Origin: Candidatus Nomurabacteria bacterium RIFCSPHIGHO2_02_40_30 | GTDB taxonomy: Bacteria > Patescibacteriota > Minisyncoccia > Phycocordibacterales > UBA9973 | NCBI GenBank assembly: GCA_001785445.1 | Contig: MFTV01000010.1 | Span: 101,566-165,565, forward strand | DNA length: 64,000 bases | Reading direction: 5' to 3' | Part shown: positions 713 to 62,008 of the stretch, one piece after another | Position numbering within the stretch: the first letter of the stretch is position 1 | Layout: each line of letters begins with the position of its first letter | Made by a program: the position numbers and the translations under genes | The notes under the pieces: model-generated | Told to the model about the DNA's origin: nothing | Databases searched by the model: none | Seen by the model: only the letters and a program-made list of their open reading frames with translations

Positions 713-783
713 GGGCGATTAGTTAAGTGGCATAACTTCGGTCTCCAAAACCGATGTCGGGAGTTCGATTCTCTCATCGCCCG
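713..783 (+). tRNA. tRNA-Trp (anticodon CCA)
   Basis: Hand-folded cloverleaf. Acceptor GGGCGAT/ATCGCCC, D stem GTTA/TAAC, anticodon stem TCGGT/ACCGA with loop CTCCAAA, T arm GGGAG-TTCGATT-CTCTC. Confidence 0.9.
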
Positions 784-846
784 CCTTATATTTATGAACA
801 CTTTTAAAAATTATACATATAATGCATTTGGACAGCGATAAAAGTT

Positions 847-3090
847 ATGAAATATATTTTTGCCATTATTGGTAGTGTGGTTGTAGCTGTGAGCTTAGTC
901 GCCCTTGGATTTAATATCAGACAAGTGGATCAAGAAAGAGCTACTTTAACGACCAACTTAGAACAACGAGCTTCTTTGCTTGCCGACAGTTTAAAAGAAT
1001 CTGTTGAGCCTTATTATGCTAATTCTATCCAATCCTCTTTCCAAGCTTCCCTTCAAAAGGTGGTCAATAAATTTGCAAATCGTGAACGCTTAGCTGGCAT
1101 AGCTCTTTATGATAATAAAGGAATACTATTAGCTACTTCTTCAGGACTACCAAAAGCCATAATTGAAAATACAAAAATTGTAGCCGAGGCCATGGACAGC
1201 AACACATCAAATAATGATTTTTTTGATACTGAAGGAGAGGACCGTTACGTGCATGTTGACCCTCTGCACAATGATGAAAGTATAGTTGGGGCACTCATGG
1301 TGGTTCAAAACGCCGGATATATAAATGCAAGAATTGGAGAAATATGGAGAGGAAATTTATTGAGATTACTGATCCAAGTAATAATATTTTCAATAACCAT
1401 TTTCATAATTTTGAGATTTTTTGTTTTTCGTCAAGTTATTCGCTTTGTAGAATCCGTGAAAAAAATTAGAATGGGCGAAGGTAAGGAAAGTTTCAAAGAT
1501 GAAGGTAAATATTCCTTTTTTACCCCGCTTGCAAAAGAAATTACTCATATTACAAAAAGTTTATCACAGGCGCGTTTGTCGGCTCAAGAGGAAGCCCGAA
1601 TGCGTCTGGAAAAACTTGATAGCCCATGGACATCTGAACGTCTTTCGGAATTCATAAAAGCCACTTTAAAAGAGAGACCTATTTTTGTGGTATCTAATCG
1701 TGAACCCTATGAACATTATACTAACTCAAAAGGTGAAGTAAGTTATCGAGTTCCTGCTGGCGGAATTGTCACCGCTATTGAACCAGTGATGGTGGCTTGC
1801 AAAGGTACTTGGATTGCTTGGGGCAGTGGAAATGCAGACAAGACAGTTGTTGATAAAGATAATAAAATTAAAGTTCCTCCCCATGAACCAAAATACACTC
1901 TAAAAAGGGTTTGGCTTTCAGACGAAGAAGTGACTGGTTACTATAATGGATTTTCCAATGAAGCAATGTATCCTCTTTGTCTGATGGCACATACTCGTCC
2001 ACTCTTTAGAAAAGAGAACTGGCAAGAGTACAAAAAAGTAAATGGCATATTTGCAAAAAATGTACTCGCAGAGATAAGAGATGTTCAAAATCCTCTTGTA
2101 TTAATTCAAGACTATCATTTAGCGCTTCTACCACAAATAATAAAGAAAAGTAGACCAGATGCTCAAATTGGAATATTCTGGCATGTGCCTTGGCCAAGTC
2201 CTGAAGCTTTTAGTGTTTGTCCGTGGCGTAAAGAAATATTACAAGGAATGCTGGGTGCTGATATTGTAGGTTTTCATATTCAACAGTTTTGTAATAATTT
2301 TATAAATACTGTCGGCAAGGAAATGGAATCTAGATGTGACCTTGAGCAATTTTCAGTAACATATCAAAATCATACCAGTCATATAAAATCATTTCCGATT
2401 GGTATTGCCTTTACTGGTGGAAATGATGATGTAACATTTGATCCGAATGTCAGTAAAAATCTTTTAGAAAAATTAGGAATACATACTAAACATATTGGCT
2501 TGGGAGTTGATCGTCTAGACTATACAAAAGGGCTTTTAGAAAGGTTTAAAGCCTTGGAATTTTTCTTTGACACCTATCCAACTTACAAAAATAATTTTAC
2601 TTTTTTACAAATAGCATCTCCGAGTAGGGAAAGTGTTCCTAAGTATAAGCAATTTAATGCAGATGTGACAAAAGAAGTTGAACGTATAAATACTAAGTTC
2701 AAAACAAAAAATTGGCAACCCATCGTTCTACTTAAAGAATATCATTCACACGAAGAACTGGATCCATTATTTAAGATTGCCAATGTATGTATGGTAACTT
2801 CACTACATGATGGCATGAACTTGGTAGCTAAGGAATATATCGCCGCCCGAGATAAAGAAGATGGCGTTTTGATTCTAAGTCAATTTGCTGGTGCTGTGCG
2901 AGATCTTAAGGGTGCTTTAATAATAAACCCATACAGCGCAGAAGAAACATCAGAAGCAATAAATACAGCTCTCAATATGGCATTACTAGAACAACAAAGA
3001 CGAATGAAGAAAATGCGTGAATCTATTAAAAATTATAATATTTATCGTTGGTCTGCAGAATTTATCAAAGCAGTTACGAGTCTAAGTTAA
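847..3090 (+). CDS. otsA: trehalose-6-phosphate synthase (GT20) with a ~270-aa N-terminal TM/ectodomain/TM/HAMP-like extension
   Basis: GT20 blocks from about aa 277: FVVSNREPYEH, IGIFWHVPWPS, VGFH, GVDRLDYTKG, SLHDGMNLVAKEY. The N-terminus has two hydrophobic helices. Confidence 0.85.
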   Translation: MKYIFAIIGSVVVAVSLVALGFNIRQVDQERATLTTNLEQRASLLADSLKESVEPYYANSIQSSFQASLQKVVNKFANRERLAGIALYDNKGILLATSSGLPKAIIENTKIVAEAMDSNTSNNDFFDTEGEDRYVHVDPLHNDESIVGALMVVQNAGYINARIGEIWRGNLLRLLIQVIIFSITIFIILRFFVFRQVIRFVESVKKIRMGEGKESFKDEGKYSFFTPLAKEITHITKSLSQARLSAQEEARMRLEKLDSPWTSERLSEFIKATLKERPIFVVSNREPYEHYTNSKGEVSYRVPAGGIVTAIEPVMVACKGTWIAWGSGNADKTVVDKDNKIKVPPHEPKYTLKRVWLSDEEVTGYYNGFSNEAMYPLCLMAHTRPLFRKENWQEYKKVNGIFAKNVLAEIRDVQNPLVLIQDYHLALLPQIIKKSRPDAQIGIFWHVPWPSPEAFSVCPWRKEILQGMLGADIVGFHIQQFCNNFINTVGKEMESRCDLEQFSVTYQNHTSHIKSFPIGIAFTGGNDDVTFDPNVSKNLLEKLGIHTKHIGLGVDRLDYTKGLLERFKALEFFFDTYPTYKNNFTFLQIASPSRESVPKYKQFNADVTKEVERINTKFKTKNWQPIVLLKEYHSHEELDPLFKIANVCMVTSLHDGMNLVAKEYIAARDKEDGVLILSQFAGAVRDLKGALIINPYSAEETSEAINTALNMALLEQQRRMKKMRESIKNYNIYRWSAEFIKAVTSLS

Positions 3091-3093
3091 AAT

Positions 3094-3858
3094 ATGAAAT
3101 ATGTTTTTAAAGATCTTGCAAATATCAAAAAGAAACTACAGGAATCAAATTTTGTCTTGTTGCTTGATTTTGATTTGACACTTTCTCCACTTGCCAAGAA
3201 TCCCGCCAAGGCAATTCTTCCTAACGATACAAGAATTTTATTAAAAAAACTTTCAAAATATATTCATATCGCAGTTATTACTGGCAGGACCATAAAAGAT
3301 ATAAAAAAAAGAATTAAGCTCAACAGCTTAACATACGTAGGTAATCACGGATTGGAATATGAAGTCGGGGGTGTTGCTAGAAGCAGTCAATTATTAGTTG
3401 AATCTAAAAAAGGATTAAAAGATATAAAAAAGAAATTTTTAAATATAAAAAGAAAATATTCTGGTGTACTTATCGAAGACAAGAAACTTGGCCTCGCTTT
3501 ACATTATCGACTACTTTTGTCCCAAGATAAGTTTGCGTTTATGGCGGATATTAAAAAAATCCAAACAGAAATAAAAAATTATGGTCTTCGTGGAATCCTT
3601 TATAAAAGAACCCTAGAGGTAAGACCGGAGACAAAAGAAGACAAAGGCACAGCTTCGCTGCTCATACTTAAAAAATTTGGCAATCCTAAACAAGTAATTT
3701 ATATAGGAGACGGCAAAACAGACGAAGATGCGTTTCGCGCGTTACCTAAAGGTATAACTATCAGGGTAGGAAAATCCAAACATAGTGTTGCTGAATATTA
3801 TGTAAATAGTACGAAAGAAGTAAAAAAATTTCTCGTTTGGCTATTATATATAGTATAA
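3094..3858 (+). CDS. otsB: trehalose-6-phosphate phosphatase (HAD family)
   Basis: DxDxT motif (LLLDFDLTLSP) and IGDGKTDEDAF. Starts 3 nt after otsA. Confidence 0.8.
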   Translation: MKYVFKDLANIKKKLQESNFVLLLDFDLTLSPLAKNPAKAILPNDTRILLKKLSKYIHIAVITGRTIKDIKKRIKLNSLTYVGNHGLEYEVGGVARSSQLLVESKKGLKDIKKKFLNIKRKYSGVLIEDKKLGLALHYRLLLSQDKFAFMADIKKIQTEIKNYGLRGILYKRTLEVRPETKEDKGTASLLILKKFGNPKQVIYIGDGKTDEDAFRALPKGITIRVGKSKHSVAEYYVNSTKEVKKFLVWLLYIV

Positions 3859-3877: not shown

Positions 3878-4150
3878 ATGGAAGAAAGAATTCAAAATTT
3901 AGAAAAAGAAGTTGAATTACTCAAAGAGAGAAATTTAAGAGTGGAGAGTGAAAAGGCTTGGGAAGTAAGCTTAACCAGACGATTATTTATTGCAATTAGC
4001 ACATATATCATTGCTGGTGTTTGGCTTATCGTAATTAATGACAGCTTTCCTTGGCTCAAAGCATTTGTGCCGGCAGTAGGCTATTTGTTTTCTACTCTTT
4101 CTTTGCCCTTTATCAAAAAATGGTGGATTAAAAATCAAAGTAAAAGATAG
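3878..4150 (+). CDS. hypothetical small membrane protein (N-terminal coiled coil, 2 TM)
   Basis: ORF only; has hydrophobic segments. Confidence 0.45.
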   Translation: MEERIQNLEKEVELLKERNLRVESEKAWEVSLTRRLFIAISTYIIAGVWLIVINDSFPWLKAFVPAVGYLFSTLSLPFIKKWWIKNQSKR

Positions 4151-5368: not shown

Positions 5369-6697
5369 CTAAATTCTTTTGATGTCGGCGCCTAGAGCAT
5401 TTAGTTTTTCGACTATGTTTTCATATCCTCGGTCAATGTGATTTGCAGGATCGTTTATAATACTTTTCCCCGGAGCCACCAAACTAGCAAGCAACATATC
5501 TATGCCCGCACGAACATCGTGAGAATTCAATTGACTTGCTTTAAACTTCGTAGGCCCATGTACTTTGGCGCCATAAGTTTCTTTCTTACTGTATTCAGAA
5601 TTATTGAAATTATAATATTTCGCCCCATATCCTTTTGGATGAAAAAGTTCATATCTTAACCCCATTTTTTTTAATTCTCCCAAATATCTCCACCTAGTTT
5701 CAAAAATTCTTTCATGGATAGTTGATTTACCTTTGGCCATATGAGCAAGTAGCAATGTCATGATTGGTTGCCAATCTGTCATGAAGCCTGGATACCAGTC
5801 AGTCACGATTTCTAAGGTTTTTAGTGGTTTGTGGATTTTTTTTATTTTCGCAACATTATTTTTAAAATCAATATCTACGCCTATTTTCTTTAAATCCCCA
5901 ATTAACGGCTCCAACAATTTTTTGTTTGCGTTTTTAACTGCAACTTTTCCACCAGTCATAATAGAAAGAATAATAGCGGTAGCCGCTTCCAAGCGATCAT
6001 AAATTGAAAAAGTTTTAGTTCCACGAAGAAAAGGTTTTACTCCAGTTATTTCTATTACTCTGGGCTCAATTCTTTTTATTTTAGCCCCCATGTCATTCAA
6101 ACATTTTATTAAATTATCAACTTCTGGTTCTGCCGCTGCGTTTTTAAGGACAACTTTTCCTCTGTTGAAAACTGAAGCCAAAATTAAATTTTCTGTTCCG
6201 CAATGAGTATTTTTTTCAAAAGTATAAGTGACGGATTTAGGTCTAGTTGGCATTGAAATTTCCATCACATTATTTTTTTCTTTTTTTATCACCCCCCCAA
6301 GAGCTTTAATACCTTGCAAATGTCTATTGATTGGTCTTTTGCCGATAGCGTCCCCTCTGATTGGATGAAAAGTTACTTTGCCTGTTCTAGCAAGTGTGGC
6401 GCCGATAAAAAGTACAGATTGTCGAGCGGACATTGATTCAAGGGGTATTTCAGAAGAATTGATATATTTGCTTTCAACTTCGATTGAATTTTTACCCGTA
6501 AATCTTACTTTGCATCCAAGTGAAGTGAGTGTATCGATAGTTCTGTAAGTGTCAGAAATTCTTGGAATATTATAAAAAAAACACTTTTCTTTACTAAGAA
6601 GAGCGGCAATTGGAAGTTTCGGACCCGCATTTTTTGCCCCAGAAACAACATAAGTTCCTTTTAATTTTTTTCCACCCCATACAATAAATTGACTCAT
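5369..6697 (-). CDS. murA: UDP-N-acetylglucosamine 1-carboxyvinyltransferase
   Basis: Start trimmed to MSQFIVWGGKKLKG...SGAKNA (ATG 6697-6695). The 41 upstream codons of the track ORF run through tRNA-Leu. Confidence 0.9.
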   Translation of the reverse strand: MSQFIVWGGKKLKGTYVVSGAKNAGPKLPIAALLSKEKCFFYNIPRISDTYRTIDTLTSLGCKVRFTGKNSIEVESKYINSSEIPLESMSARQSVLFIGATLARTGKVTFHPIRGDAIGKRPINRHLQGIKALGGVIKKEKNNVMEISMPTRPKSVTYTFEKNTHCGTENLILASVFNRGKVVLKNAAAEPEVDNLIKCLNDMGAKIKRIEPRVIEITGVKPFLRGTKTFSIYDRLEAATAIILSIMTGGKVAVKNANKKLLEPLIGDLKKIGVDIDFKNNVAKIKKIHKPLKTLEIVTDWYPGFMTDWQPIMTLLLAHMAKGKSTIHERIFETRWRYLGELKKMGLRYELFHPKGYGAKYYNFNNSEYSKKETYGAKVHGPTKFKASQLNSHDVRAGIDMLLASLVAPGKSIINDPANHIDRGYENIVEKLNALGADIKRI

Positions 6698-6699
6698 AG

Positions 6700-6781
6700 T
6701 GCCGGAGGGGAGAGTCGAACTCCCACGTCTTGCGACACGCGATTTTGAGTCGCGCATGACTACCAATTCCATCACTCCGGC
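6700..6781 (-). tRNA. tRNA-Leu (anticodon CAA), long variable arm
   Basis: The reverse complement folds as follows. Acceptor GCCGGAG/CTCCGGC, anticodon stem CGCGA/TCGCG with loop CTCAAAA, variable arm GTC-GCAA-GAC, T arm GGGAG-TTCGACT-CTCCC. Confidence 0.9.
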
Positions 6782-6791
6782 GAATCCACAC

Positions 6792-6820
6792 ATTCTACAC
6801 AAACTTATACCTAAAATCAA
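6792..6820 (-). promoter_or_regulatory. sigma70-like promoter for the tRNA-Leu/murA/miaA unit
   Basis: The minus strand reads TTGATT-N17-TAGAAT. The -10 ends 10 nt before the tRNA 5' end. Confidence 0.5.
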
Positions 6821-41943: not shown

Positions 41944-43674
41944 ATGATAAGAAAAATGTTCAAAAAAAAGAATAGTGACAAACACTTTTTCGTGGAGCCC
42001 GACGAGATTTTTCTTGACTCAAAAAATTTGCAAAATTTTGACCGTCAGCAATTCGAGGGACGAATAGAAAAATCAATACCTAAAAAGAACATTTTATTTC
42101 TTGGGATTTTATTCCTGCTTTTTTCTGTAACATTTGGCAGCCGTCTGATATATCTGCAAATCCAAAAAGGGGAAGCGTACTTGAAAAGAAGCGAAAATAA
42201 TATTTTAGACAAAGTTATTATCTTTACCGAGAGAGGAATAATCTATGACAGAAATAATGTAAAGCTGGCTTGGAACAGTAGAAATTCGGACGTTGGACGT
42301 CTGAATTCCGGACGTCCAACGTCCGAATCTGAAAACATGCCTATTCGCACATACATGTCACCCGGATTTTCTCATGTATTGGGTTACGTTAGTTACCCAG
42401 CCAAAGACAAGGACGGCAACTATTGGCAAACTGAATTTATGGGTAAAGACGGCTTAGAAAAAGAATACAACGACAAAATCAAAGGAGAAAATGGCTCAAA
42501 AATAATAGAAATAAATGCGTTAAAAGAAATAAATTCCGAAAATATCATAAACATTCCAAAACGAGGGAATAACTTGGTTACAAGTATTGACTCAAAAATT
42601 CAGAAAGAATTGTTTACTTTAATTAAAAATCTGGCAGAAAATAATAACTTTACCGGTGGAGCTGGGATAATAATGGATGTCAGAAATGGAGAAATACTGA
42701 CTTCTACCAGCTTCCCAGAATATAATTCCGAAACTTTATCTCTTGGAGAAGATATATCAGCGATCAATAAGTATATAAACGATAAAAGAAAATTCTTTAT
42801 GGATAGAACTGTTTCCGGACTTTATACTCCAGGCTCGATCGTTAAGCCATTTTTCGCGCTTGGAGCTCTAACTGAAGGCATTATTGACCAATATAAAAAA
42901 ATTCTTTCGACTGGTTCCATCTCAATCCCAAACCCTTATTTTAAAGACCAAAAGACTGTTTTCAAAGACTGGAGAGTAAACGGCTGGACAGATATGAGGG
43001 AGGCTTTGGCTGTTTCTTCTGATGTTTACTTTTACTCTATTGGCGGGGGCTACGGCGACCAAAGAGGCCTTGGTATAACCAATATTGGCAAGTATGCCAG
43101 CCTCTTCGGCATTGGAGAAGCAACTGGGATTGATTTGCCGGACGAAAAAAAGGGCACCATCCCGTCTCCGCAATGGAAAATAGAAAATTTTCAAGGAGAC
43201 CCTTGGCGCATTGGAGACACTTATCATACGGCTATCGGACAATATGGATTCCAAGTTACTCCGGTAGAAATAGTCCGCGCCGTAGCGGCTATAGCAAGTT
43301 ATGGCAAAATGTTAACTCCGCATTTTATACTCAATGACAAAGAAAAGGAAAATAAAACTTCTACAGTCAACTTAAAAAAAGAATACTTTGACATTGTGCG
43401 TGAAGGAATGAGAAAAGCAGTGACAACGGGCACGGCGACAATACTGAATGTGCCCTATGTGCATGTCGCTGTGAAAACCGGAACAGCAGAGCTCGGAGTG
43501 GCTAAAAATAAAGTGAACTCTTGGGTGATGGGCTTCTTGCCGTACGAAGACCCTAAGTACGCTTTCGTGATTATTATGGAGTCGGGCCCCTCGACCGGCG
43601 GCGCTAATGCGTCTTCTGTCATGCGAGGTCTCTTGGACTGGATGTACCTTAACACACCGGAATATTTCGATTAA
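41944..43674 (+). CDS. mrdA: penicillin-binding protein 2 (class B transpeptidase)
   Basis: N-terminal anchor, SxxK (GSIVKPF), SSD(VYF) and KTGTA. Confidence 0.85.
   Translation: MIRKMFKKKNSDKHFFVEPDEIFLDSKNLQNFDRQQFEGRIEKSIPKKNILFLGILFLLFSVTFGSRLIYLQIQKGEAYLKRSENNILDKVIIFTERGIIYDRNNVKLAWNSRNSDVGRLNSGRPTSESENMPIRTYMSPGFSHVLGYVSYPAKDKDGNYWQTEFMGKDGLEKEYNDKIKGENGSKIIEINALKEINSENIINIPKRGNNLVTSIDSKIQKELFTLIKNLAENNNFTGGAGIIMDVRNGEILTSTSFPEYNSETLSLGEDISAINKYINDKRKFFMDRTVSGLYTPGSIVKPFFALGALTEGIIDQYKKILSTGSISIPNPYFKDQKTVFKDWRVNGWTDMREALAVSSDVYFYSIGGGYGDQRGLGITNIGKYASLFGIGEATGIDLPDEKKGTIPSPQWKIENFQGDPWRIGDTYHTAIGQYGFQVTPVEIVRAVAAIASYGKMLTPHFILNDKEKENKTSTVNLKKEYFDIVREGMRKAVTTGTATILNVPYVHVAVKTGTAELGVAKNKVNSWVMGFLPYEDPKYAFVIIMESGPSTGGANASSVMRGLLDWMYLNTPEYFD
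42284..42328. repeat. perfect 18-bp inverted repeat (9-nt loop) embedded in frame in mrdA
   Basis: ATTCGGACGTTGGACGTC-tgaattccg-GACGTCCAACGTCCGAAT. The GGACGT unit occurs four times. Confidence 0.9.
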
Positions 43675-61420: not shown

Positions 61421-61448
61421 TTGACAGGTTTAGATAAAAGCATAAACT
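61421..61448 (+). promoter_or_regulatory. promoter for the riboswitch-led operon
   Basis: TTGACA-N16-TAAACT. Confidence 0.55.
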
Positions 61449-61469
61449 TAGTATGTTCCTTTAATAATT

Positions 61470-61648
61470 TAAAAGAAGTGATTGGGGAAACTGGTTAGAT
61501 TCCAGTACAGTGCCGCTACGGTAAGCCCACGACTTTGTGTCGGGGACAAGTCCGATTACCAATCATTTTTGTTTTTCCCGAGCAGGATATCCTCTTTCGT
61601 TTTTTTACGAAAAAGACTGTAAATTCTGCCCGCAGCAGGATTTTTTTT
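61470..61648 (+). promoter_or_regulatory. cobalamin riboswitch (aptamer plus SD-sequestering / terminator-like hairpin)
   Basis: P1 stem TGATTGG/CCAATCA. Core GGGAAACTGGTTAGATTCCAGTACAGTGCCGCTACGGTAAG. B12-box-like AAGTCCGATTACC. Hairpin AATTCTG/CAGGATT, then T8 directly before the ATG. Confidence 0.7.
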
Positions 61649-62008
61649 ATGTCTAAAAATAATAAAAAATTATATACCGGCCTTGTTATTATTTTACTCT
61701 TTTTTGCTTTTGTTCTAGTTCCCTCTTTTAAAAAAGAAAGTCAGATATCGGATTCAATAATATCCCCTGTAAAATTTGCTCCTAATACTCTTCTGTACGA
61801 TGCTCTGGTGCAAGAAGAAAAAGAAGGTAGAATAGACTTTTCTGGAAAAATGTACCCTAATCTCGGATTTTTTGTAACAGACATTGGAACACTGCATTCT
61901 GGTAACGGTAAAAACCTTATTTATTATATTAACGGCAAAGAAGCGGCTGTCGGCGTTTCTTCCTACAAGCTCAAAGATGGCGACGTCATTGAGTGGAAAT
62001 TGGAATAA
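61649..62008 (+). CDS. membrane-anchored DUF4430 (transcobalamin-like C-terminal domain) protein
   Basis: Start trimmed to MSKNNKKLYTGLVIILLFF. DUF4430-like end LIYYINGKEAAVGVSSYKLKDGDVIEWKL. Confidence 0.75.
   Translation: MSKNNKKLYTGLVIILLFFAFVLVPSFKKESQISDSIISPVKFAPNTLLYDALVQEEKEGRIDFSGKMYPNLGFFVTDIGTLHSGNGKNLIYYINGKEAAVGVSSYKLKDGDVIEWKLE

Follow-up and report, generated by a model that had tools for sequence, protein, structure and literature searches.

The window, by which we mean the whole 64,000-nt stretch of DNA that was analysed, holds a complete gene at 847..3090 in which a transmembrane sensor module is fused to a trehalose-6-phosphate synthase (OtsA). The open reading frame begins at the first start codon past an upstream stop, and its 747-aa product is referred to below as the window protein or the window copy. 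A preliminary description of this DNA had reported a 747-aa otsA frame with a glycosyltransferase family 20 (GT20) region from about aa 277, and otsB 3 nt behind it. The ORF listing and Pfam GT20 bear out the former, and the ORF listing, Pfam and TIGR00685 the latter. The features of the locus are as follows.

713..785, tRNA-Trp, just upstream of the sensor-OtsA gene
847..3090, + strand, sensor-OtsA fusion gene, complete (ORF listing; 747 aa plus stop)
856..921, + strand, first transmembrane helix (TM1), about aa 4-25 (hydropathy peak; within helix 2-58 of both AlphaFold models)
922..1356, + strand, WalK-type single Cache/PAS sensor, extracytoplasmic, aa 26-170 (profile, Foldseek, family-level Pfam, dN/dS)
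1357..1428, + strand, second transmembrane helix (TM2), aa 171-194 (hydropathy peak; inside continuous helix 157-208; basic cluster on the cytoplasmic side)
1429..1581, + strand, divergent HAMP, aa 195-245 (AS1 195-209, connector 210-225, AS2 226-245)
1582..1674, + strand, helical linker, highly conserved, aa 246-276 (AQEEARMRLEKLDSPWTSERLSEFIKATLKE), between HAMP and the first GT20 strand
1675..3087, + strand, GT20 catalytic domain of the trehalose-6-phosphate synthase type, aa 277-747 (Pfam, Foldseek, motifs)
3094..3858, + strand, otsB, trehalose-6-phosphate phosphatase, 3 nt past the otsA stop

The otsB product matches Pfam Trehalose_PPase (E 8e-33) and, with 128.1 bits against a cut-off of 68.05, passes the T6PP equivalog model TIGR00685. 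Among the 70 related loci having room for it, otsB lies directly downstream in 36 and is missing from the immediate neighbourhood in 30. Cell-wall genes (murI, murA and a PBP gene) are found near the fusion gene inside the window, and a Ddl-Ddl fusion lies upstream of it on the source contig. A neighbourhood conserved beyond otsB is ruled out, since related loci have different neighbours; for the same reason, the gene context gives no ground for claiming WalK-like cell-wall sensing. A search of the window for another copy of the module was negative.

The catalytic domain has the sequence and the predicted fold of an OtsA. Pfam GT20 (Glyco_transf_20) covers aa 280-743 (E 1e-122; 410.6 bits against a cut-off of 32.5), and Foldseek matches the domain to solved OtsA/Tps1 structures (5hvl, 5jio, 1gz5) with E values of 1e-42 to 1e-38 and TM scores of 0.85-0.9. 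In alignment A5, the window protein keeps the E. coli OtsA motifs VVSNR, AGG, W..W, YY.GFSN, DYH, H(I/V)P, RLDY.KG, PSR, and DGMNLVAKE. The catalytic and substrate residues of the E. coli enzyme, which we take to be R9, G22, W40, Y76, W85, D130, H154, R262, K267, R300, D361, and E369, show a single change: W85 is Tyr in the window protein, at a position where most relatives retain Trp (consensus LWP). R285 on the first GT20 strand corresponds to an arginine of E. coli OtsA that is R10 in the numbering of A5 and R9 in that of the crystal structure, presumably the residue that binds glucose-6-phosphate. Among the NCBIfam models, OtsA and OtsA/B score highest, each below its equivalog cut-off (TIGR02400 OtsA, 445.3 bits against 564.85; PRK14501 OtsA/B, 481.6 against 634), and GGPS reaches 320 against 569. 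As the OtsA equivalog cut-off is not reached, the product is not certain.

Direct scans of aa 1-276 with Pfam and NCBIfam gave sub-threshold matches only, and the N-terminus was identified via family-level scans, a profile search of the PDB, and structure comparison. Because a full-length Foldseek search is swamped by OtsA matches, the N-terminal module was modelled separately. The hydropathy profile contains exactly two membrane-grade peaks (aa ~1-25 and ~169-201), and the cytoplasmic flank of TM2 is strongly basic, with 7 K/R in aa 196-225. AlphaFold predicts, in order, a helix at 2-58, a five-strand alpha/beta core at 82-155, and a helix at 157-208 that passes through TM2; these two helices run into and out of the sensor domain. 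After TM2 come a loop (209-225), a helix (226-258), another helix (263-274), and then GT20. The preliminary description had placed a TM helix at aa 4-22, an extracytoplasmic segment of ~150 aa behind it, and a second TM helix after that. Hydropathy and AlphaFold recover both helices in place, and the segment between them is, in the models, a 145-aa domain with a defined Cache/PAS fold that fills the whole extracytoplasmic region, aa 26-170.

Structure and profile comparisons agree in relating this domain to the sensor of WalK. The top Foldseek match of the module model is full-length WalK (9a5d_A; 266 aligned columns, TMq 0.73), followed by the extracellular domain of S. aureus WalK (E ~1e-9), and the sensor fold, taken from a predicted model with a mean pLDDT of 75, matches 4ywz with E 2e-9 and TM 0.77. 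Searched against the PDB, the sensor family profile finds the WalK chain 5is1 (E 2.6e-5). Among 50 relatives, Pfam detects dCache_1 in 28 (best E 1e-7), Cache_WalK in 20 (1e-5), and sCache_3_2 in 12 (2e-6). For the window sensor alone the Pfam matches are sub-threshold: sCache_3_2 at 13.9 bits against a cut-off of 28.4, ArlS_N at 16 against 27, and SMP_2 at 19.8 against 28.9. Five residues of the sensor, R41, S48, G84, G148, and W167, are invariant.

Directly past TM2 the models show a helix-loop-helix of the HAMP type (helix to 208, loop 209-225, helix from 226), and the superposition on full-length WalK covers the aa 195-245 region; the pLDDT of the connector is low (51-68) in these monomer models. 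Pfam HAMP is matched by 19 of 68 diverse homologous juxtamembrane segments, the best at E 2.2e-5, and is the sole family that they hit repeatedly. A relative with tandem sensors, P0165, matches at E 0.0011 (19.7 bits, cut-off 25), and the segments from Patescibacteria match weakly (2 of 10, E 0.05-0.1). The family signature consists of a Pro early in AS1 and a Gly where the connector begins, each present in 90% or more of the sequences; the P-to-G spacing is 14. HAMP identity is supported at the level of the family, through homology and the secondary structure of the models. The HAMP-like linker of the preliminary description accordingly stands as far as the homologues and the predicted helix-loop-helix are concerned, but the window copy itself gives no match to Pfam HAMP (PF00672) and, while keeping G210, carries Q196 in place of the near-invariant AS1 proline. 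In the PDB search with the segment profile, Af1503 HAMP chains are the sole full-length single-stretch matches, at a non-significant E of 0.26-0.66. Designed armadillo repeats scored best in that search and were rejected as an artefact of summed weak repeat matches.

The helical linker that follows is the most conserved part of the protein, with a mean top-residue frequency of 0.90 compared with 0.74 in GT20. Its residues E249, A250, R251, W261, T262, R265, and L266 do not vary between phyla, and the linker ends ~8 residues ahead of the first GT20 beta-strand. A short coiled coil had been proposed here; a helix is indeed predicted at this place, but as one continuous helix extending HAMP AS2.

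The sensor-OtsA observation is confirmed well beyond this contig. More than 120 protein clusters align with the window protein end to end at 55-93% identity, and the module is carried by 1,766 cluster representatives. A survey of homologues put the number of species genomes carrying it at no fewer than 133, spread over Patescibacteria and some ten further phyla; this number is a lower bound because the scan, made with alignment A1, used two peptide patterns only, and it is biased towards Patescibacteria. The fusion is therefore not confined to one genome. Every carrier found is an uncultured MAG, and none of the source-given names returned by the searches goes beyond "trehalose-6-phosphate synthase" or "hypothetical protein". 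In the literature, searched mostly without subscription journals or domain-architecture databases, an OtsA fused to Cache/HAMP or to TM helices was not described, and the fusion is apparently undescribed.

The closest known counterpart of the module is WalK (YycG) of Firmicutes, whose N-terminal part likewise has one extracytoplasmic Cache/PAS domain of ~145 aa between TM1 and TM2, followed by HAMP. By structure and by profile alike no protein matches the module better; sequence identity to the WalK sensor is only ~20%. The idea that a histidine-kinase-type input had been placed on a synthase is borne out in that the N-terminal 245 aa match the WalK plan and are joined to the enzyme in frame in 78 of 80 loci. 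The two proteins part after HAMP: in WalK, PAS, DHp, and ATPase domains come next and the signal reaches WalR by phosphotransfer, whereas the window protein continues through a 31-aa helix into a GT-B glycosyltransferase. Pfam finds no HisKA/DHp or HATPase_c domain in it at E <= 1. The window protein is not a histidine kinase, and the common ground is the input module alone.

Receptor enzymes in which a sensor, TM helices, and HAMP precede a C-terminal catalytic domain on one polypeptide are known, for example the Cache/HAMP-GGDEF cyclases and the HAMP-adenylyl cyclases such as mycobacterial Rv3645. The window protein shares their layout, but those enzymes make second messengers whereas its output is an enzyme for a compatible-solute precursor. 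With the OtsA/Tps1 enzymes of E. coli, Mycobacterium, and Candida it has in common the GT20 fold, the substrate and catalytic motifs, and the otsB partner. These canonical enzymes are cytosolic and 450-500 aa long, in line with the preliminary description (E. coli OtsA has 474 aa and no comparable extension), whereas the window protein has 276 more N-terminal residues and a transmembrane sensor. Canonical OtsA is usually described as controlled by transcription (e.g., RpoS in E. coli), by metabolites, or by oligomerisation. The "osmotic stress sensor" described for Arthrobacter OtsA is self-assembly of the soluble enzyme, which has no sensor domain (PMC5685639).

The module is also found on a second enzyme. 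In five clusters (P0217 and P0334-P0337), from a small Patescibacteria clade and on contigs of up to 316 kb, a homologous TM1-Cache-TM2-HAMP module (32% identity to that of the window, E 3e-37) is fused to a GCS2-type carboxylate-amine ligase. These proteins share the module with the window protein and differ in the GCS2 output and in having no EEARMRLEKLDSPWT linker. Given this second fusion partner, and soluble GCS2 relatives without the module, the module behaves as a portable input module. The GT20 and GCS2 outputs are both metabolic enzymes rather than makers or removers of signalling molecules. A different arrangement is seen in an OtsA encoded on plasmid pAA02 of Aminobacter aminovorans (WP_083948901.1; 605 aa, 46% identity in GT20). 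It belongs to the same GT20 clade as the window protein, likewise has a TM helix near its N-terminus and carries the WTAE helix immediately ahead of GT20, but its TM helix is single and it has neither Cache nor HAMP. Membrane placement alone may therefore serve this GT20 clade.

The architecture suggests that an outside signal directly controls the synthesis of a stress-protectant sugar. We consider it probable that the window protein is a one-component transmembrane receptor-enzyme in which the sensor module gates trehalose-6-phosphate synthesis. The WalK-type sensor would change state outside the membrane, either by binding a ligand or in response to an envelope or physical cue, and the change would pass via TM2 to the divergent HAMP. 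From there it would reach the very conserved helical linker (aa 246-276) and the first GT20 strand bearing R285, so that trehalose-6-phosphate synthesis would be switched on or off post-translationally. OtsB, presumably co-transcribed, would then convert the product to trehalose. We infer a dimeric state, regulation rather than mere anchoring, and signalling from the outside inwards; given the product, osmotic, desiccation, or envelope stress would be the most plausible stimulus.

It is scarcely credible that the fusion itself is unreal, be it as an annotation or assembly artefact or because the working enzyme is a soluble OtsA whose translation begins internally, at Met252. Misassembly is ruled out by the identical full-length protein on contigs in 135 collection blocks, by the in-frame union of module and GT20 in those 78 of 80 genomic loci, which come from independent assemblies and in which no separate gene encodes the N-terminal part, and by a dN/dS of 0.02-0.06 for sensor and HAMP together (sensor, 0.03-0.06; GT20, 0.05-0.09). 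An SD-like GAGGAA does lie 7-12 nt before the Met252 ATG, but all four synonymous Glu-Glu codon pairs occur at this site (23/15/13/11) and 25 of 72 genes have Leu, Val, or some other amino acid at position 252. Given this variety of codons and residues, neither an internal ribosome site nor an internal start is conserved, at Met252 or elsewhere near aa 252-270, and the Met252 start is ruled out as a conserved feature; a minor soluble isoform in the source organism is possible. Nor is it probable that the architecture is as described but that the GT20 domain yields another sugar phosphate, such as glucosylglycerol-phosphate or a different alpha-glucosyl phosphate. The scores below every NCBIfam equivalog cut-off, the Tyr at the W85 position, and the 30 of 70 loci with no otsB in the immediate neighbourhood would fit such a product. 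Against it, the OtsA models outscore GGPS by far, the acceptor-phosphate and UDP-glucose motifs align with those of E. coli OtsA, most relatives have Trp at the W85 position, and the adjoining phosphatase passes its own equivalog cut-off.

The remaining alternatives accept the enzyme and differ on what the N-terminus does. It might be an anchor or scaffold that keeps the synthase at the membrane as a dimer, with no signal-dependent gating, a reading that we regard as unlikely; within it, and no likelier, the anchor could couple trehalose-phosphate to export, to glycolipid or envelope assembly, or to a local supply of substrate. The Aminobacter enzyme is a precedent for such an anchor, and the degenerate HAMP sequence of the window copy is in keeping with one. 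For a plain tether, however, both a folded 145-aa sensor and a HAMP would be superfluous, and the dN/dS values indicate purifying selection on sensor and HAMP as strong as on the enzyme. Certain polar and aromatic residues of the sensor are the same in all phyla, and the module has been separately recruited to the unrelated GCS2. Signalling could also run from the inside out, as in LapD, with GT20 registering the status of sugar phosphates or UDP-glucose and HAMP relaying it to the outer domain. We think this very improbable, together with its corollary that the outer domain binds or releases an extracytoplasmic partner, for example a hydrolase, a protease, or a host-contact factor: input sensors of the WalK type match far better, the kept catalytic residues and otsB partner favour a working enzyme over a sensor-only domain, and no conserved gene for an extracytoplasmic partner adjoins the fusion gene, its neighbourhoods varying save for otsB.

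If the window protein is a receptor-enzyme as we propose, genome-reduced bacteria with few two-component systems would gain direct post-translational control of metabolism from outside, by a route from external cue to protectant much shorter than transcriptional or metabolite control. The protein would also provide a natural system for HAMP gating of a GT-B glycosyltransferase. Taken together with the GCS2 fusions, TM-Cache-TM-HAMP modules may well represent an unrecognised receptor class whose outputs are stress-protectant metabolic enzymes (GT20, GCS2) and not signalling domains. A census of Cache domains found them exclusively with signalling outputs, but its models were built from such proteins only, so that surveys of this kind would miss a class with metabolic outputs (PMC4822843). 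Such a class would add metabolic enzymes to the outputs known for Cache, the largest superfamily of extracellular sensors. Although the hosts are uncultured, stimulus and coupling are approachable by heterologous expression, with a simple GT20 assay and established HAMP chimeras.

The trehalose-6-phosphate synthase (otsA) frame of the window joins an N-terminal module of TM1, Cache sensor, TM2 and probable HAMP to an OtsA enzyme domain, and this sensor-OtsA fusion is a genuine architecture that occurs widely and has apparently not been described before.

Layout of the sensor-OtsA gene (window positions) and protein (residues)
713..785, + strand: tRNA-Trp(CCA), ending 61 nt 5' of the otsA start codon
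847..3090, + strand: sensor-OtsA ORF of 747 aa, from the ORF listing; its start is the first start codon past the upstream stop
1582-1674, + strand: linker of 31 aa (aa 246-276) between HAMP and GT20
aa 2-58: helix, TM1 running into the long N-terminal sensor helix (AlphaFold models)
aa 82-155: five-strand alpha/beta core (AlphaFold models)
aa 157-208: continuous helix through TM2 (AlphaFold models)
aa 209-225: loop (AlphaFold models)
aa 226-258 and 263-274: helices before GT20 (AlphaFold models)
aa 280-743: GT20 (Pfam, E 1e-122)

The tRNA-Trp gene leaves no space for a longer otsA frame, and since that gene ends so close to otsA, the promoter or read-through serving otsA-otsB must sit in or near it. 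According to the ORF listing, otsB starts 3 nt past the otsA stop, as the preliminary description had it, and encodes a trehalose-6-phosphate phosphatase (Pfam Trehalose_PPase, 8e-33; TIGR00685, 128 bits against a 68-bit cut-off). Of the 70 loci with room for it, 36 have otsB directly downstream, 4 have it at another place in the locus, and 30 have none within about 4 kb. A 90-aa ORF (window 3878-4150, +), which the source contigs list among their gene calls, stands 19 nt past otsB; it has a coiled-coil-like N-terminal stretch, two hydrophobic segments and zero Pfam matches. The window starts within murI (34-444, +), which on the source contig (L003:442-3598) follows a tandem Ddl-Ddl fusion (D-Ala-D-Ala ligase, 784 aa); murA (5369..6820) and a PBP (41944..43674) also lie inside the window. 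We claim no link between these cell-wall genes and the WalK-like sensor, since related loci have different neighbourhoods.

The N-terminal features first described for this protein, namely a TM helix, an extracytoplasmic segment, a second TM helix, a HAMP-like linker and a putative short coiled coil, are all found where they had been placed; the models show the last as one continuous helix that prolongs HAMP AS2. Just two peaks in the Kyte-Doolittle profile reach membrane grade (aa ~1-25 and ~169-201), and a basic cluster follows the second. In Pfam and NCBIfam scans, aa 1-276 give only sub-threshold matches (SMP_2, ArlS_N, sCache_3_2, sCache_like, AtoS, PieS), all of them extracytoplasmic sensor domains or sensor kinases. 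Homologues of this region reach down to 38% identity, and all sufficiently long aligned ones continue in the same frame to FVVSNREPY, the motif at which GT20 starts. The extracytoplasmic segment is a WalK-type single Cache/PAS sensor, an assignment that follows from several lines of evidence. The family profile matches the S. aureus WalK extracellular domain (5is1) over its whole length (E 2.6e-5), and Pfam finds dCache_1 in 28, Cache_WalK in 20 and sCache_3_2 in 12 of 50 full-length relatives. The AlphaFold model of the full protein (pLDDT 83) agrees with the one made for aa 1-276 alone (pLDDT 75.5), and the top Foldseek match of the N-terminal model is full-length WalK (9a5d_A; 266 aligned columns, TMq 0.73), followed by crystal structures of WalK extracellular domains (E 2e-9, TM 0.77-0.79) and then by KinD, Tlp3, PctC and DctB. 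The profile and Foldseek matches to WalK also bear out the proposed sensor-type input architecture. In two relatives, P0165 (913 aa) and a 1141-codon open frame of a Nitrospirota MAG (L080:2791-6214), the extracytoplasmic sensor is tandemly duplicated before TM2-HAMP-GT20.

The HAMP assignment is supported for the family, with 19 of 68 diverse homologous segments matching Pfam HAMP when scanned singly (best E 2.2e-5); the window's own segment (aa 195-245) is left unmatched by the Pfam scan. No other Pfam family is matched by more than one of the 68. Their alignment has a near-invariant Pro, a Gly 14 residues on and (D/E)(L/I)F.PL..E at HAMP-like spacing; in the window protein, Q196 occupies the expected proline position. 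The signal stems mainly from non-Patescibacteria members, and Patescibacterial segments match weakly (2 of 10, at E 0.05-0.1). The tandem-sensor relative P0165 has the most canonical HAMP sequence in the family (E 0.0011). When the segment profile is compared with the PDB, Af1503 HAMP chains alone match over the full length in a single stretch, and their E of 0.26-0.66 is not significant. From homology and predicted secondary structure, we read aa 195-245 as a probable HAMP domain, divergent in Patescibacteria.

The linker is the most conserved part of the protein, with a mean top-residue frequency of 0.90, versus 0.74 in GT20 and 0.57-0.64 in the sensor, TM helices and HAMP. E249, A250, R251, W261, T262, R265 and L266 are invariant from Patescibacteria to Acidobacteriota, and EEARMRLEKLDSPWTAERL (aa 248-266) is a stretch proper to this GT20 clade; its WTAE part recurs in the anchor-only Aminobacter OtsA described below. 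The linker helix ends ~8 residues before the strand with R285. The counterpart of R285 in alignment A5 is R10 of E. coli OtsA, which crystal-structure numbering counts as R9.

The full-length search gives at least 120 clusters (about 735-760 aa) that match the query from one end to the other, with source names that include Paceibacterota, Nomura-, Terry-, Doudna-, Magasanik-, Taylor- and Buchananbacteria and Microgenomates, and the exact window protein occurs on contigs of 135 collection blocks. In an exhaustive profile search, the module turns up in 1,766 cluster representatives with E <= 1e-3, of which 204 reach E <= 1e-30. The survey of homologues that had been proposed confirms it in at least 133 GTDB species genomes, all MAGs, in Patescibacteria and other phyla. 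The 80 loci kept span many Patescibacteria lineages as well as Acidobacteriota/Terriglobia, Elusimicrobia, Omnitrophota, Nitrospirota, Verrucomicrobiota, Planctomycetales, Gemmatimonadales, Ignavibacteria and 'Deltaproteobacteria'. Source-given names are 'trehalose-6-phosphate synthase' or 'hypothetical protein' for every protein returned except the fragment P0176, which JGI names an uncharacterised membrane protein affecting hemolysin expression. One MAG with the label Peribacteria (L034:965-1784) has a module frame that stops after 273 codons without an in-frame GT20, with otsB 1.4 kb further downstream; a frameshift, a pseudogene or stop-codon recoding may account for it.

The two-TM topology places the WalK-type sensor outside the cell, and HAMP, linker and intact GT20 inside. 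The fusion protein probably works as a regulated receptor-enzyme. It would dimerise in the manner of HAMP receptors, and TM2 and HAMP would relay the sensor state to the conserved linker, which may change GT20 geometry, domain closure or dimer arrangement and so gate T6P synthesis; OtsB would then finish trehalose. Because of the product, osmotic, desiccation or envelope cues are natural candidates for the stimulus. An N-terminal region that serves as anchor or scaffold only is a less likely alternative. A single N-terminal TM anchor and WTAE helix, without sensor or HAMP, is present in the OtsA of Aminobacter aminovorans plasmid pAA02 (WP_083948901.1; L001:2749-4566), a member of the same GT20 clade at 46% identity; in the window protein, dN/dS against close relatives is 0.03-0.06 for TM1 and sensor, 0.02-0.05 for TM2 and HAMP, and 0.05-0.09 for GT20, values that point to purifying selection on module and enzyme alike. 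The Aminobacter gene adjoins amylo-alpha-1,6-glucosidase and GT4 genes, and its product, from a cultured alphaproteobacterium, could be a tractable comparison protein. Signalling through the same topology from the inside out, in the manner of LapD, is very unlikely.

That the GT20 domain makes a different sugar phosphate is improbable, and orthogonal to the architecture. None of the NCBIfam models for OtsA, OtsA/B and glucosylglycerol-phosphate synthase reaches its equivalog cut-off, and the first two rank far above the last. The enzyme domain begins near aa 277, as had been described: E. coli OtsA (474 aa in the annotated K-12 genome) aligns to aa ~277-747 only. This part superposes on OtsA/Tps1 structures (Foldseek, E 1e-42 to 1e-38, TM 0.85-0.9), and an alignment with E. 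coli OtsA shows that the motifs bearing its known catalytic and substrate-binding residues are kept, the sole change being W85 to Y, with Trp in the family consensus. The product, judged from sequence, is very probably trehalose-6-phosphate. That the fusion is an artefact or conceals an internal start is exceedingly improbable. Module and GT20 share a single uninterrupted frame in 78 of 80 loci (of the other two, one lies at a contig end and one has an interrupted frame), which argues against a separate N-terminal gene, a possibility the preliminary description had raised along with a start near aa 270. An SD-like GAGGAA stands before Met252; the Glu-Glu codons there use all four synonymous pairs (23/15/13/11) and residue 252 is other than Met in 25 of 72 genes, which rules out a conserved internal start at Met252.

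The TM-Cache-TM-HAMP module is portable. In P0217, a strong match to the N-terminal profile (E 1e-50), a GCS2 carboxylate-amine ligase replaces GT20. The P0217 search returns four further full-length clusters of this kind (682-717 aa, 72-89% identity, contigs up to 316 kb) and about 115 GCS2 homologues of 420-520 aa without the module. The window module and one GCS2 fusion are 32% identical over aa 7-228 (E 3e-37), the gene of the aligned fusion is carried by ten contigs, and the common region stops past HAMP AS2. The fusions (L089:5001-7049, P0217, P0334-P0337) form a small Patescibacteria clade; soluble GCS2 homologues lacking the module are many in Patescibacteria and DPANN archaea.

The input module resembles that of WalK, but the window protein has no HisKA or HATPase domain in Pfam and is therefore not a histidine kinase. 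It shares the logic of Cache/HAMP-GGDEF cyclases and HAMP-adenylyl cyclases, whose output is signalling, whereas its own is metabolic. Sequence and models support a receptor-enzyme theme with transmembrane input and a putative regulatory role. No description of the fusion was found in the literature searched. The proteins in which the Cache census identified Cache domains exclusively have signalling domains as output, and its models were built from signalling-output proteins only (PMC4822843). In candidate-phyla genome papers, trehalose genes serve only as general markers of osmoprotection (PMC5220378, PMC11608272), and the Arthrobacter OtsA 'osmotic sensor' acts by self-assembly of a soluble enzyme (PMC5685639).

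Elsewhere in the window, a cobalamin riboswitch (61437-61581, +), which at 36.6 bits exceeds the gathering score, sits immediately upstream of the gene for a DUF4430 protein (61535-62008, +) and overlaps its listed start, an arrangement suggestive of B12-regulated scavenging by a cell with a reduced genome. A class II aminoacyl-tRNA synthetase (46453-48348, -) combines tRNA-synt_2 and an OB anticodon domain with a C-terminal DUF2000 domain.
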